From positions 1 through 64,000 of the forward strand of contig CAWAUM010000011.1 in NCBI GenBank assembly GCA_963785235.1: a DNA stretch of 64,000 nucleotides. Reading direction: 5' to 3'. The stretch is from an uncultured delta proteobacterium (GTDB taxonomy: Bacteria > Desulfobacterota > Desulfomonilia > UBA1062). Under the pieces are notes generated by a model. That model made no database searches and was not told the origin of the DNA. It was given only the letters and a program-made list of their open reading frames with translations. Position numbers and translations under genes: made by a program. Positions within the stretch are counted from its first letter, which is position 1, and every line of letters starts with the position of its first letter. This document shows, piece by piece, positions 35,273 to 39,053 of the stretch.

Positions 35273-36559
35273 TTATTGAGATATAAGATTATCAATGTCA
35301 TTGTGATAGAGAACACCAAGGATTCTATCGTTCCTGTCCACAACAGGGATCATGTGGTAATGATACTTTAAGAACATCTCTACCAGGTCATCCTGGACGT
35401 CGTCTTCTTCTGCCGCAACGACCGGCGAGATCATTACATCGCTCATGGTCAGGTGATCCGGTGTAAGTACGAGTTCTCGCAGATCAACAACACCCAGCAA
35501 CGTCTGGCCATCACCATTGACCACATAGATGTAGGAGATGCTTTTCGGATCCCTGCCGGAACCCCTGATGGCGGTAAGCACATCACCGGCATTGTCCGTT
35601 TTTTGAGCAACAACATAATCGGAAGACATGATATTTCTCGCCTGAATCTCACGTTGGGAAAGAATGTTGCGGACACGTTCGGCCTGATCCTTGCTGAGAT
35701 AGGCCATAAGCTCGGTGACATCGTCGTGCGGCAGGACCGTAAAGAGGCCTGCCAGCTGCGGCGTCGACATCTCCGAGAGGATCTTGCGGGCCTTTTCCTC
35801 TCTCAGGTTGGCGATGATCTGGCGCTGGGCCCTGGGCTCCGCCTCCATCAGGGTTTCAGCCGCCTTTTCATTGTCAAGGGCTGAGAAGAGCACCTGCTGC
35901 TCATCACCCGGCAGCTCTTCCAGGAAATCCGCCAGATCTTCGCTGGGGAGCTCCAGCATCTGTTTTTTTGTCACGGATAATGTCACTTTATCCGTGGAGA
36001 CTGCATCCTCAACAGAAAGCGGCTGGACATATTTCCATGAGATGAGGTTGCTTTTAACCAGTTTAAAGTTGCCCAGCCCCCACCTTCGGAAGAAGCCGCC
36101 AAACGAGACATCAACATGGACAAGCAGGAGCAGACCTCTCGTATCGAGAAAATGCACATCATTGACGACCTCTACCTGCCTACCGTCGATATCGAGGACT
36201 GTCTTACCCATGAGATGCTTGTCCATGAGTATCCAACCCGGCTGATCGACAAAAGGCGGATACACGTCGCCGCTTTCCGGCGGCCGGACAAAAATGGCAT
36301 CATCTTCGATTTTTATCACATTAGACCAGGGGATGAACTCGGTGGGTTTTCCCCAGCCGTGTTCTATATAGATACCTACTGCTTCGGGGTAAGGCTCTTT
36401 GTGAAGGAAGACAAGATCGCTCAGCTTTCCTATGCGGTTCTTGATCTGTTCTCTGCATACCGGCAGTTTGAGCAGCTCTGAAAAGAAGAGGAATCGGAAC
36501 TGTTCAAATCCCGGGTGCTGGTCAATCGCTTTCAACTTGGAATTCTTGTCGGCTATCAT
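35273..36559 (-). CDS. soluble MgtE N-terminal + CBS-pair protein without a TM domain
   Basis: DLADFLEEL..AAETL.E (MgtE_N-like), YIYVV..LLGVVDLREL and IPVVD CBS motifs; PRC-barrel-like N-terminus. Confidence 0.85.
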   Translation of the reverse strand: MIADKNSKLKAIDQHPGFEQFRFLFFSELLKLPVCREQIKNRIGKLSDLVFLHKEPYPEAVGIYIEHGWGKPTEFIPWSNVIKIEDDAIFVRPPESGDVYPPFVDQPGWILMDKHLMGKTVLDIDGRQVEVVNDVHFLDTRGLLLLVHVDVSFGGFFRRWGLGNFKLVKSNLISWKYVQPLSVEDAVSTDKVTLSVTKKQMLELPSEDLADFLEELPGDEQQVLFSALDNEKAAETLMEAEPRAQRQIIANLREEKARKILSEMSTPQLAGLFTVLPHDDVTELMAYLSKDQAERVRNILSQREIQARNIMSSDYVVAQKTDNAGDVLTAIRGSGRDPKSISYIYVVNGDGQTLLGVVDLRELVLTPDHLTMSDVMISPVVAAEEDDVQDDLVEMFLKYHYHMIPVVDRNDRILGVLYHNDIDNLISQ

Positions 36560-36578: not shown

Positions 36579-37886
36579 TCATATGAATAATCCCGGGAAA
36601 AGGGTGCTTATACCCATCAGCGAGGACATGAGGATGACAAAGATTGCGATTCCCCAGTTCATGACGTTCTGCCAAGGCGTATTCACGTGTTCACCCATAA
36701 AGGCCCTGTCATTGAGAAGAAGCAGGAGAAAGATCAGCGACACCGGCAGCAGGGTGACGGCTACCACCTGGACGAACATGGTTATGGTGACGAGCGGGGC
36801 ATTGGGGATGAGGACAACGGCTCCCGCCGTAACCAGCATGAGCAGGTAAACCAGGTAAAACCACGGGGCATCCTTCACCTTCTGGTTCAGCGAATGGGCC
36901 CAGCCGAAGACCTCACCCGTGGCCCAGGATGTGGCAAGGGAGATACAAAGCGCCCCAAGGAACCCGGCATCAAAGAGGCCTATGGCGAACAGCTTGCGTG
37001 CGAGGTCTCCATAACCGGCAGGCATGAGGGGCACAATTGCCTCGGCCGTCTGCCTGGCGTCCTGGATTACAATGGGTGGGTTGTGATAGAAGAAGGCGGC
37101 CCCAGTGGCGATGATGATGAAGGCGGCCACGAGGCACGTGAGGAAAGCCCCTGCAAGGGTCTCCAGTTTGCCGAAGCCGACATCATGGATATCTAGCCCC
37201 TTGTCCACCACTGCGCTCTGCTGGAAAAAGATCTGCCACGGTGTAATGGTAGTACCGAGGTTTGCAAGGATGATGAAGATGAGTTCGATGTTAAACCCAC
37301 CCATATCCGGATGGTAGAACCCCTGAAAAACTGCATTCCAGGCAGGGGCTGTTGGCGTATCCATGGCCCAGATGGCTGCCGGGATGTAGACGAAGTTGAA
37401 GCAGCAGAATAAAAGGGTGATCTTTTCAAAGGTCCAGTACTTCCCTGTGCGTACAACGGTAAAGAGAATGGCCGTAACAACGATAAACGTTATCCATGGA
37501 GGTACACCAAAAAGACTCATGGCTGCCAGCATGCCCACGTATTCCGTTACCAGGGTGAGCCAGTTGATGAATATCATATCCACTAACGAGAACCAACCCC
37601 AGAAAGGCCCGAAGCCTTCAAAAATAGCCTCGGCATGTCCGCGTTTCGACACCGCGCCCAGGCGGACGGTCATTTCCTGGACATAGTATGCCATGGGGAA
37701 GAGTATGAGAAAGATCCACAGCAAAGAAAACCCATATTTAGAGCCGGTAACGGCATAGGTAGAGATACCCCCGGCATCGTTATCGGCAATCATGACAATT
37801 ATCCCCGGGCCGAGGACAGACAGGAATATAATGAGTCTTTTGCGGAAGCGGTCTACGCGGTGAAAGGTTTTATTAAGCCAGTACAT
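36579..37886 (-). CDS. NRAMP-family divalent cation transporter, NRMT (Mg2+) type
   Basis: GPG..DNDAGGISTY (DAGG rather than DPGN), QEMTVRLG and GTTITPWQIFFQQS. Confidence 0.88.
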   Translation of the reverse strand: MYWLNKTFHRVDRFRKRLIIFLSVLGPGIIVMIADNDAGGISTYAVTGSKYGFSLLWIFLILFPMAYYVQEMTVRLGAVSKRGHAEAIFEGFGPFWGWFSLVDMIFINWLTLVTEYVGMLAAMSLFGVPPWITFIVVTAILFTVVRTGKYWTFEKITLLFCCFNFVYIPAAIWAMDTPTAPAWNAVFQGFYHPDMGGFNIELIFIILANLGTTITPWQIFFQQSAVVDKGLDIHDVGFGKLETLAGAFLTCLVAAFIIIATGAAFFYHNPPIVIQDARQTAEAIVPLMPAGYGDLARKLFAIGLFDAGFLGALCISLATSWATGEVFGWAHSLNQKVKDAPWFYLVYLLMLVTAGAVVLIPNAPLVTITMFVQVVAVTLLPVSLIFLLLLLNDRAFMGEHVNTPWQNVMNWGIAIFVILMSSLMGISTLFPGLFI

Positions 37887-38170
37887 AGCAAAAACCTTTA
37901 ATAATTATAAATGTATGCGAGTATAGAGAGGTTTTTAAGACCTCTTTCGATACCCGTAAATGTGAGAGTCGGCATAGTCTGCGCATACATCCGCACCCCA
38001 ATCGTATCTCTGAACACGATCGACCGGATATTGTATGGATTGTGTATGCTACGGATCCGGCACGATCATCTCTCCCTTGCCCTAGGACAGACGATCCATG
38101 CCGGGGCAAGGGCTAAATTCTATGACTAGTACTGCCTTCGTCATTTTCCATGATTGCCTCTCCCTAGCAC
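37887..38170 (-). promoter_or_regulatory. structured leader containing three uORFs
   Basis: uORFs at 38151-38113, 38069-38049 and 37990-37898, each with an SD-like sequence, plus GC hairpins. Confidence 0.55.
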
Positions 38171-38384
38171 AGTGAAAAGGGACAGTCAAAGGTGAAAATT
38201 CACAAAACATCCGGCAATAAGTTCAATCCTCTATGAGAATATTCCGGTTGTATGCAAATAATCATGGATAGGGGGTATTCCAGCTTGGGATAATGTGAAG
38301 AAGCACTTTGACTTAACACTGACATGTGAAATATGGTCACAGCCAATGAAGACATCCTCCGATAGAAGAGGAATAGATTGTGGA

Positions 38385-39053
38385 ATGAGTAGAAAAACGA
38401 TATATCAGGAGATCATCCTCTTGTCCATTCTCGCGCTTTGCCTCTTTGCCTTTTTCCACTATCATCTCTACACGTTTTTTTTAGACAGGGAAAAAGCGAT
38501 CACCTTTATCAAGTCATTTGGCCCCTGGTCTGTTCTTGTTTTCATCTTTTTCCAGATCCTCCAGGTGATCCTGGCCCCCATCCCGGGTGAGGCAACAGGC
38601 GTTATCGGCGGTTATCTGTACGGACCGATCCTTGGAACCCTCTATTCTACCATTGGATTGGCGCTCGGGTCATGGCTGGCCTTCTGTCTGGCCCACATCT
38701 TTGGAGAGCCTCTTGTGGAAAAGATCGTCAAACCGGAGACACTCCGGAAATACGACAGCTTTCTGGAGCATAAAGGCAGGTTTGTCATCTTCATCCTTTT
38801 TCTCATCCCTGGTTTTCCTAAAGATGCACTCAGCTACATGTTGGGGTTGAGTCATATGAGGGCGCTGCCCTTCATTGTCATCTCCTCAGCAGGTCGTTTT
38901 TTAGGGACCGGATCGCTGTCCCTCATGGGGAGTTTTGCACGCAACAGGCAATACGAAGGGCTCGCGATCGTCCTTGTCGCCTGCTGTGTCATAGTGCTTG
39001 TTGCCTACCTGTATCGTGACAGACTTTTAAGCAAACTCAAGAGAGATCATTAA
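38385..39053 (+). CDS. TVP38/TMEM64 (DedA/VTT domain) membrane protein
   Basis: LQVILAPIPGE, GYLYG and FLIPGFPKD.LSY motifs. Confidence 0.88.
   Translation: MSRKTIYQEIILLSILALCLFAFFHYHLYTFFLDREKAITFIKSFGPWSVLVFIFFQILQVILAPIPGEATGVIGGYLYGPILGTLYSTIGLALGSWLAFCLAHIFGEPLVEKIVKPETLRKYDSFLEHKGRFVIFILFLIPGFPKDALSYMLGLSHMRALPFIVISSAGRFLGTGSLSLMGSFARNRQYEGLAIVLVACCVIVLVAYLYRDRLLSKLKRDH

Follow-up and report, generated by a model that had tools for sequence, protein, structure and literature searches.

A conserved leader with upstream open reading frames precedes magnesium-transport genes in a family of Desulfomonilia-like bacteria

In the 64,000-nucleotide (nt) stretch of DNA analysed here (the window; contig CAWAUM010000011.1 of assembly GCA_963785235.1, from an uncultured delta proteobacterium of the Desulfomonilia), a gene encoding an NRMT-type transporter of the Nramp family (36579-37886) is preceded by a leader that carries several short upstream open reading frames (uORFs). 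All coordinates are positions in the window, and the leader, its uORFs and the transporter gene all lie on the minus strand. A VTT/DedA gene diverges from 38385, and the intergenic space is therefore about 500 nt. The region 38189-37873 is best explained as the promoter and ~270-nt leader of an operon comprising the NRMT gene and a gene for an MgtE-like fragment. We estimate a probability of about 0.9 that it is a conserved cis-regulatory leader of Mg2+-transport genes. The original prediction, made from the sequence of the window, had described a relay of three uORFs in this region, and its landmarks (uORF1, a 9-base-pair (bp) stem, uORF2 encoding MIVPDP, and uORF3) are all present on the minus strand where it had placed them. 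Its general interpretation of a conserved, M-box-free uORF leader linked to Mg2+ stood up to comparison with relatives, while its PDP-stop sensor, its Shine-Dalgarno sequence (SD) for uORF1 and the direction of its relay did not.

The transporter, 435 amino acids (aa) in length, matches the Pfam Nramp family (E 3e-69), and its best match in PDB is 7qia (E 7.9e-63, 216 bits), which we take to be EleNRMT, while the best MntH reached only 1.5e-14. By these match scores it is closer to the NRMT clade than to the Mn2+/Fe2+ Nramps, in line with its predicted type. Alignment with 7qia showed that the helix 1 motif NDAGGIST is common to both proteins and that helix 6 reads GTTITPW here and GTTIAPW in 7qia, with Thr at the position of the Ala that replaces Met and with the Trp kept. 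The site changes reported for EleNRMT are Asn to Gly in helix 1, a Thr before the helix-6 site, loss of the Met and His to Trp (bioRxiv 10.1101/2021.10.17.464711); the residues of our transporter match this description, suggesting an NRMT-type site. Its orthologs share 77-99% identity with it in five genomes of the same genus and 72-99% in 80 fetched loci, and the records of the closest ones are titled Desulfomonilia, Deltaproteobacteria or similar metagenome-assembled genomes. The second gene of the operon (35273-36559) encodes a 428-aa soluble protein with PRC-barrel, MgtE_N and CBS domains (Pfam), which aligns with the NCBIfam mgtE model only over positions 21-251 of 450. It is the "MgtE-like fragment" that Shin et al. 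2014 described as adjoining nrmT genes (PMC4072509).

Alignments with relatives showed that a block from ~38190 to 37983 is kept, with both flanks diverging. This block runs from TTGACT at 38189 to GGATGTATGC at 37983 with a constant length of 186-193 nt, and the sequence upstream of it and most of the sequence downstream of it diverge. The first 15 distinct leaders were collected with an exact core pattern from 9 of 122 genomes of the class (once per genome) and from 15 metagenome contigs. A covariance model, R1, built from uORF1 and the stems described below, then added 7 more divergent leaders, giving 22 unique leaders, of which the 15 form the NRMT-type set (including one MgtA-type leader and one contig with the PRC-barrel gene). 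The closest relative of the window, G011, whose transporter is 99% identical, was excluded from every leader count since its leader reads as a run of N (L002 / L031). Counts for uORF1, the start and stop of uORF2 and the second ATG of the start element refer to the 22 leaders, and stem energies and uORF3 frame counts to the 15. R1 matched 16 of 52 genomes of the family and 2 of 151 genomes in a sample of the phylum. The leader mostly occurs as one copy per genome, and every copy lies upstream of a Mg2+-transport gene. Its length ranges from ~270 nt, as here, to 440 nt across the family. When the leader was compared by BLASTN with the 80 loci of NRMT orthologs, which span many phyla, DNA-level matches were found only in the 6 closest ones (82-99% protein identity). 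An estimate of intergenic length for these 80 loci was discarded, since GC-rich DNA yields spurious open reading frames (ORFs). Furthermore, a 311-nt leader segment folds with a z-score of -3.23, and none of 100 shuffled sequences folded as well.

The genes behind the leader have Mg2+ transport in common. In 8 of the 16 R1-positive genomes the leader lies upstream of NRMT (the gene being broken in one of them, G004), and in 7 it lies upstream of CorA. Six of these seven CorA proteins match the Pfam CorA family, and the seventh, a fragment at a contig end, is 83% identical to one of the six. In the remaining genome, G013, the leader precedes a P-type ATPase, the N-terminal 448 aa of which score 443 bits on TIGR01524 (Mg2+-translocating), twice the score of any other P-type model. 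In one metagenome contig the leader is found directly before the PRC-MgtE_N-CBS gene. This spread over CorA and MgtA-type genes strengthens the Mg2+ link that had been predicted from the NRMT locus. The best explanation of these data is that the leader family controls CorA, NRMT and MgtA-type ATPase genes in one family of Desulfomonilia-like bacteria.

Two loci show damage behind the leader. In G004 (contig C20; L006, L022 and L030) the NRMT gene is broken behind an intact leader, with split matches and TGA/TAA stops inside. In a metagenome contig (L126), a deletion about 340 nt after the leader core, natural or an assembly artefact, joins the uORF3b frame in-frame to the C-terminal third of NRMT.

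No known riboswitch was found at the locus. An Rfam scan of 37400-38900 returned 5 matches at a permissive E-value, the best with an E of 2.5 and all far below the gathering scores; the M-box (RF00380, gathering score 44 bits) gave no match in this region even at E up to 10, and none in the whole genome G000 (93% complete), while the positive controls from B. subtilis and L. lactis were detected. These scans bear out the prediction that the leader is free of an M-box and matches no Rfam family. None of the Rfam 15 families, the M-box included, reached threshold on any leader of the family; the enterobacterial mgtA leader does have an Rfam model. By contrast, 7 of 74 NRMT orthologs of other lineages have an M-box upstream on the same strand, and M-boxes upstream of nrmT genes were reported by Shin et al. 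2014 (PMC4072509). The downstream genes thus give the leader the kind of association by which Mg2+ regulatory elements are defined, in a lineage in which no M-box was found. Among the NRMT orthologs outside the leader family, an M-box lies ~1 kb upstream of the NRMT start in two loci (L102, 1266-1442, and L107, 1390-1565), presumably ahead of an intervening gene, which would fit the order of mgtE fragment then nrmT described by Shin et al. In two Syntrophaceae loci, fluoride riboswitches lie 1.5 kb downstream of NRMT (L049, 2829-2891; L050, 5318-5380).

A translation-dependent leader of this kind might instead sense a signal other than Mg2+, such as translation capacity, the supply of Asp/Glu-tRNA, or Mn2+. 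CorA-family proteins can transport other divalent cations. Moreover, the substrate of a NrmT lacking an M-box can be Mn2+ according to Shin et al. (PMC4072509). Nevertheless, what the three families of downstream genes have in common is Mg2+ transport, no other P-type model gives the ATPase more than half its score on the Mg2+ model, and M-boxes stand at 7 of the 74 NRMT orthologs elsewhere, which makes a non-Mg2+ signal quite improbable.

The conserved block opens with a putative promoter. Its -35 element, TTGACT (38184-38189), has the form TT[GT]AC[TAG] 17 nt before the -10 element in 19 of the 22 unique leaders, that is, in all those parsed by the promoter regular expression; the remaining 3 were misparsed owing to an in-frame upstream ATG. 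It is followed by an extended -10 element, TGTGC + TAGGGA (38161-38171), where CTGTG.TAGG is invariant in the 15 NRMT-type leaders and the -10 of CorA-type leaders reads TA[GC]G[CA]A; the element has the form TGTG(C/T) + TA[GC]G.. in both types taken together. The spacing from the -10 to the ATG of uORF1 is 9 nt in the NRMT type and 8 nt in the CorA type, and the putative transcription start is at about 38152-38155. A minus-strand promoter at 38144-38117 proposed by a consensus scan falls inside uORF1 and was given no weight. Just upstream of the -35 lies a palindrome, GTGAA-TT-TTCAC (38198-38209), which is present in the window and its closest relatives, not in G003-type leaders or genus g5, and could be a lineage-specific operator or a product of chance.

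uORF1 (38113-38151) encodes the peptide MENDEGSTSHRI, with an acidic pair at codons 4-5. Its frame is open in all 22 unique leaders, where it measures 11-12 codons with length differences of whole codons. The predicted conservation of an acidic uORF1 peptide is borne out by these leaders, since all 22 keep the acidic pair without exception and its codons vary only at third positions (GAA/GAG/GAC/GAT), with all four third-position letters occurring at codon 5. That the pair is kept despite this variation indicates that the peptide itself is constrained. It reads M-x-x-D-[DE] in consensus, with M-D-E-E in two 11-codon leaders of genus g5; the first six residues after Met include 2-4 Asp or Glu (D/E), their neighbours are mostly small (S, N, G, T), and Pro is absent. 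uORF1 thus is a conserved coding uORF in the leader of Mg2+-transport genes (NRMT, CorA, MgtA-type), and it has the D/E-rich N-terminus of the MgtL/CorL/MgtQ class, in a motif weaker than EPDP. The purine sequence GGGAGAGG had been taken for the SD of uORF1. It sits between the -10 and the ATG, it is not conserved, and CorA-type leaders lack it and carry a non-purine sequence such as CACGTTCCCA in its place. With this position and this absence, GGGAGAGG is probably not an SD of uORF1, and uORF1 would be translated as a leaderless or nearly leaderless frame.

Directly after the uORF1 stop begins the 5' arm of a stem, here called stem A, which pairs CCCTTGCCC (38104-38112) with GGGCAAGGG (38074-38082), the latter overlapping the purine tract before uORF2. 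This is the 9-bp stem noticed originally, and it proved both conserved and covarying: it forms in 15 of 15 leaders with -16.3 to -20.1 kcal/mol, begins 0-2 nt past the uORF1 stop, has 95.5% of its cells paired, and includes 3 pairs with two-sided change, a level matched by 3 of 500 shuffles. A second, stronger stem had been missed. Stem B, found in both the minimum free energy (MFE) fold and the RNAalifold consensus, pairs 38085-38104 (5' arm) with 38057-38075 (3' arm), and its 3' arm holds the purine tract, the AUG and the first four codons of uORF2. It is a 17-19-bp hairpin of -26.5 to -31.2 kcal/mol in 15 of 15 leaders. Among these leaders 98% of its cells are paired without compensatory change (positions being invariant or changed on one side). 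When the CorA-type leaders were added, in an alignment fitted to the model and including one spurious antisense row, 94.6% were paired and 4 pairs had changed on both sides, with the 10 doubly changed cells found in 0 of 500 shuffles. The arms follow each other in the order A5', B5', A3', B3' with linkers of 0, 6 and 2 nt, and because they interleave with linkers of 0-6 nt, stems A and B are mutually exclusive. In the 4 leaders in which it was tested, forcing stem A cost 0.9-4.7 kcal/mol over the MFE.

Two folds that are nearly isoenergetic, in stems whose nucleotides are almost invariant, would also suit a direct RNA sensor, in which Mg2+ itself shifts the balance between the two stems, with uORFs that play no part or only read out the fold; the Salmonella mgtA leader was first described as such an RNA sensor (cited in PMC11552253). 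However, uORF1, which lies outside both stems, keeps its frame, length and acidic pair in 22 of 22 leaders, indicating a constraint at the amino-acid level, and the leader matches no Rfam family and has no covarying multi-helix core of the kind seen in aptamers. We therefore regard a direct sensor as improbable.

uORF2 (38049-38069; MIVPDP) overlaps stem B, and its start and an M-x-x-P beginning are kept in 22 of 22 leaders. According to the original prediction, translation of uORF1 would melt stem A and thereby expose the SD of uORF2, whose peptide ending in PDP-stop would sense Mg2+. The position of stem A, abutting the uORF1 stop with a 3' arm over the purine tract before uORF2, and the Pro at codon 4 in all 22 leaders would agree with this scheme. 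However, this codon falls in GCCGG, an invariant part of stem B, and the RNA structure accounts for its retention; moreover, the PDP-stop occurs in only 3 of the 22 unique leaders. The uORF2 stop is variable in position, lying after 6-8 codons in 7 leaders and later elsewhere, for an overall range of 6 to >300 codons; uORF2 extends to or beyond the next start element in 12 of 22 leaders and is fused in frame to CorA in two. Furthermore, a ribosome at the uORF1 stop would melt stem A and leave stem B free to bury the uORF2 start. The opposite sign of regulation fits the geometry better. A relay in this form and direction therefore appears very improbable. In the two leaders with the fusion (L148 and L149, from G010 and G007), uORF2 runs into CorA in frame without a stop ~95 nt after the start of the model match, and initiation at its AUG would extend CorA by ~25 residues at its N-terminus; in G014, whose leader is nearly identical, uORF2 and CorA lie in different frames.

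Downstream of uORF2, a spacer (37996-38049) contains the sequence GCATACA (38049-38043) and a tentative hairpin of CCGGTCGATCG with CGATTGGGG (38027-38017 / 38004-37996), both of which pair around or with the downstream start element in the MFE fold. A helix of GCATACA with TGTATGC was also considered and rejected: among the 15 leaders 76% of its cells are paired with one two-sided change, and it is too weak outside the window's leader class. The start element itself, GGTGCGGATGTATGC (37983-37997), is near-invariant in the 15 leaders and contains two ATGs 4 nt apart. All 22 leaders have the second ATG, which in the CorA type serves as the start codon of CorA; it is the first start codon of its frame in 3 of these 7 leaders, and CorA begins there with M-L-R or M-R-R. 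In the NRMT and MgtA types, the second ATG opens a frame of its own, uORF3b, which likewise begins M-L-R or M-R-R and then diverges freely.

The first ATG opens uORF3a (37898-37990), the uORF3 of the original prediction, which indeed lies between ATGTATGCG (37990-37982) and CGCATACAT (37919-37911), with its TAA just before the AAGG of the Nramp-family ORF. The hairpin predicted from these two segments is confined to the window's closest leader class. In the NRMT-type set, uORF3a is 30 codons long in 10 of 15 leaders, measures 5 codons in three others and 3 codons in another, and is without its ATG in G008; CorA-type leaders do not contain it. uORF3b (37873-37986; 37 codons) overlaps uORF3a and ends 14 nt inside the NRMT gene. 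In 13 of 15 leaders no stop interrupts its frame before the main start, compared with 0-4 stops in the other two frames. The distance from the start element to the main start varies from 100 to 275 nt in NRMT and MgtA leaders, and the uORF3b stop nonetheless falls 5-14 nt beyond the main start in 12 of 15, the MgtA version included. The exceptions are -3 in G008, -36 in the contig with the PRC-barrel gene (12 nt before an alternative GTG), and the fusion in the contig with the deletion. uORF3b thus has the conserved overlap of stop and start expected of translational coupling, and the SD of the NRMT gene itself (AAGG) is weak. We propose, from this arrangement, that uORF3b may couple its translation to the transporter start.

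The output might also lie in Rho-dependent termination within the leader, of the kind known from the enterobacterial mgtA and corA leaders, with uORF1 still sensing Mg2+ and translation of uORF2 and uORF3b shielding the RNA from Rho. There is no intrinsic terminator within the leader, the sole terminator-like site (38372-38355) being upstream of the promoter, and the leader, at about 270 to 440 nt, is long and would be mostly untranslated in the OFF state. Precedents are reported for enterobacterial corA/corL (PMC11552253) and for an Mbox with a uORF in M. tuberculosis (PMC12810186). However, in 12 of 15 leaders uORF3b stops no more than 14 nt from the main start, and its ATG is identical with the CorA start; both features point to control of translation initiation. 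Termination by Rho as the output seems rather unlikely to us, and the two outputs may coexist.

We favour a translational attenuator similar to, and not homologous with, MgtL, CorL and MgtQ, and put the specific mechanism that follows at a probability of roughly 0.55. Transcription would start 1-3 nt before uORF1, resulting in leaderless or near-leaderless translation. By analogy with MgtL and MgtQ, the early acidic pair, flanked by small residues, would make translation of uORF1 sensitive to ribosome stability and hence to free Mg2+. At high Mg2+, a ribosome at the uORF1 stop would cover the 5' arm of stem A, so that stem B would form and bury the uORF2 start, and the downstream starts would remain closed. 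At low Mg2+, translation would abort at the acidic pair, or leaderless initiation by the 70S ribosome would fail, and stem A would form first, trapping the 5' arm of stem B in its loop and freeing the 3' arm. The freed arm may then be translated as uORF2 or may re-pair with a conserved downstream CCGG.CGATC segment, and either fate would open the start element GGTGCGGATGTATGC. Ribosomes on uORF3b (or uORF3a) would terminate at the NRMT start and thereby turn the transporter on by translational coupling.

Several of our data weigh against this mechanism or weaken the grounds for it. The -10 hexamer TAGGGA is poor, and the consensus promoter scan missed the promoter. In the g1 leaders, uORF1 has 2-3 D/E among its six post-Met residues and no Pro, a weaker motif than the EPDP of MgtL. 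The covariation comes from few independent lineages (roughly 6-8 clades), and for stem B with the CorA-type leaders the alignment had been fitted to the model. The out-of-frame overlap of uORF2 with the CorA start in G014/G012-type leaders, of ~113 nt, could be repressive instead of activating. The ribosome-binding site (RBS) of uORF2 had an unpaired fraction of 0.00-0.28 when stem A was forced, against 0.33-0.39 in the MFE fold, and that of the main start or uORF3b is strongly paired only in the window's leader class (0.08-0.18), with 0.17-0.62 in the others. By partition function, the uORF2 and main-start windows were inconsistently among the most paired windows over the 22 leaders. Together, the folding with stem A forced and these accessibilities mean that the sign of regulation is underivable from thermodynamics. 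As to RNA, one metatranscriptome run contained 6% of the sampled words and a second gave nothing; the first yielded one 226-nt contig from a relative, which covers 38042-38228 (187 nt) and continues further upstream, and a 35-nt scrap in the coding sequence. Since this contig runs upstream of the proposed promoter, it is uninformative on the transcription start and on expression. Finally, Shin et al. reported that the M-box-less NrmT of A. capsulatum acted as a Mn2+ transporter (PMC4072509), so that Mg2+ as the substrate here is only predicted.

A broader reading, which we advance tentatively and as a minority possibility, is that the leader is a portable ribosome-based Mg2+ sensor, a module of a leaderless acidic uORF and a two-stem switch ending in a CorA start, that was captured by unrelated transporter genes. 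Under this reading, 70S-dependent leaderless initiation and acidic-peptide abortion would both depend on Mg2+, and NRMT, the MgtA-type ATPase and the MgtE fragment would have captured the module via a bridging ORF that stays open to the new start. The persistence of the CorA start codon and first three codons as the head of a uORF suggests how the leader may have moved between genes; beyond this head, the sole conserved property of the bridging uORF is that it stays open to the start of the next gene. If so, the family would represent convergence on the MgtL principle outside Proteobacteria sensu stricto, and would document how translational coupling allows a cis-regulatory leader to pass from gene to gene.

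Other conserved sequences were seen before NRMT genes outside the leader family. Orthologs of the Syntrophales type (L042-L045, L047, L053, L054, L075, L037, L038, L041, L056 and L059) share a different conserved leader ~250-300 nt upstream of the NRMT start at 2501 (alignment A4), in which a TTGAC(G/T) ... TATAA promoter is followed by a uORF encoding MEPPG (variants MDDPG and MEPPGS/R) with synonymous variation, and then by CCCGGAA, TTTCCGG and CCGGAAA segments that could form alternative hairpins. Its Glu-Pro-Pro-Gly start resembles motifs of proline stalling and of MgtL, and it may be a second, independent uORF leader for the NRMT family. In orthologs of the Acidobacteriota and NC10 type (a cluster of 24 regions, including L046, L052, L060, L066 and L073), conservation reaches to the start codon, as in ...CCCATGACC...GGGGGCGGCCC and then ATG, and an out-of-frame ATG ~23 nt upstream may open an overlapping uORF.

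Full-text literature searches, to which subscription journals and supplements were out of reach, returned no description of this leader family. Enteric bacteria are where control of Mg2+ transporters by acidic leader peptides has been established to date (mgtL, corL and mgtQ). If our interpretation is correct, such control would have originated independently in an uncultured anaerobic lineage without M-boxes, and the leader would provide a second cis-regulatory marker for Mg2+-related transporters, usable as Shin et al. used the M-box, which bears on the question, raised by these authors, of which NrmT proteins without an M-box and which MgtE-like fragments take part in Mg2+ homeostasis. The leader family is a small one, present in 16 of the 52 genomes of a single family, and none of its hosts is in culture, so that its immediate reach is limited.

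The known systems most similar in design are the enterobacterial ones. In mgtL, the EPDP sequence after Met is reported to make the ribosome unstable, to a greater degree when Mg2+ is low, and to abort translation at low Mg2+, switching mgtA on, and abortion is favoured by N-terminal D/E or P, small residues and short nascent chains (bioRxiv 10.1101/2021.02.02.429294); corA expression is reported to be inversely related to corL translation (PMC11552253). As far as those accounts go, the leader described here resembles MgtL and CorL in having a short acidic uORF before a Mg2+ transporter gene, mutually exclusive stem-loops, an expected inverse relation between uORF translation and transporter expression, and one design that serves more than one transporter class. 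Different from MgtL and CorL, with which it has no sequence or Rfam-detectable similarity, it has a uORF1 without proline that is apparently leaderless, two further conserved start sites (uORF2 and uORF3a/b), an output that apparently relies on coupling via a bridging ORF rather than on Rho termination, and a host of another phylum. In Salmonella mgtQ, an 8-codon uORF, Asp2 and Glu5 are reported to free the mgtB RBS via alternative stems (PMC8092293). Common to mgtQ, in the published outline, and the present leader are a very short uORF with early acidic codons, a set of alternative stems (1:2, 2:3 and 3:4 in mgtQ) and release of an RBS at the level of translation. While mgtQ is a single uORF lying within an operon between mgtC and mgtB, the non-homologous leader here is located at the 5' end, extends over ~270 nt and is shared by CorA, NRMT and MgtA-type genes.

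Like the M-box, which is reported to be associated with CorA, MgtA, MgtE-like and NrmT genes (PMC4072509) and which stands in the corresponding place before NRMT at 7 of 74 loci, the leader is associated with several classes of Mg2+-related genes. Unlike the M-box, a metal-binding aptamer, it appears to be uORF-dependent. In attenuators of the trp/his type, the position of a ribosome on a leader ORF picks one of several alternative helices, the first of which abuts the stop of the leader ORF. The present leader is similar in that stem A abuts the uORF1 stop and alternative helices follow, and it differs in having no run of a single regulatory amino-acid codon and no intrinsic terminator, with the output at translation starts. 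In design it differs from the mgtL, corL and mgtQ leaders in a proline-free acidic uORF that is likely leaderless, in three conserved starts, and in an ORF that bridges the CorA start into new contexts. Since relatives carry it in front of three or four kinds of magnesium-transport gene, the leader most likely serves to adjust magnesium uptake at the level of translation, in a manner similar to MgtL and CorL in enteric bacteria.

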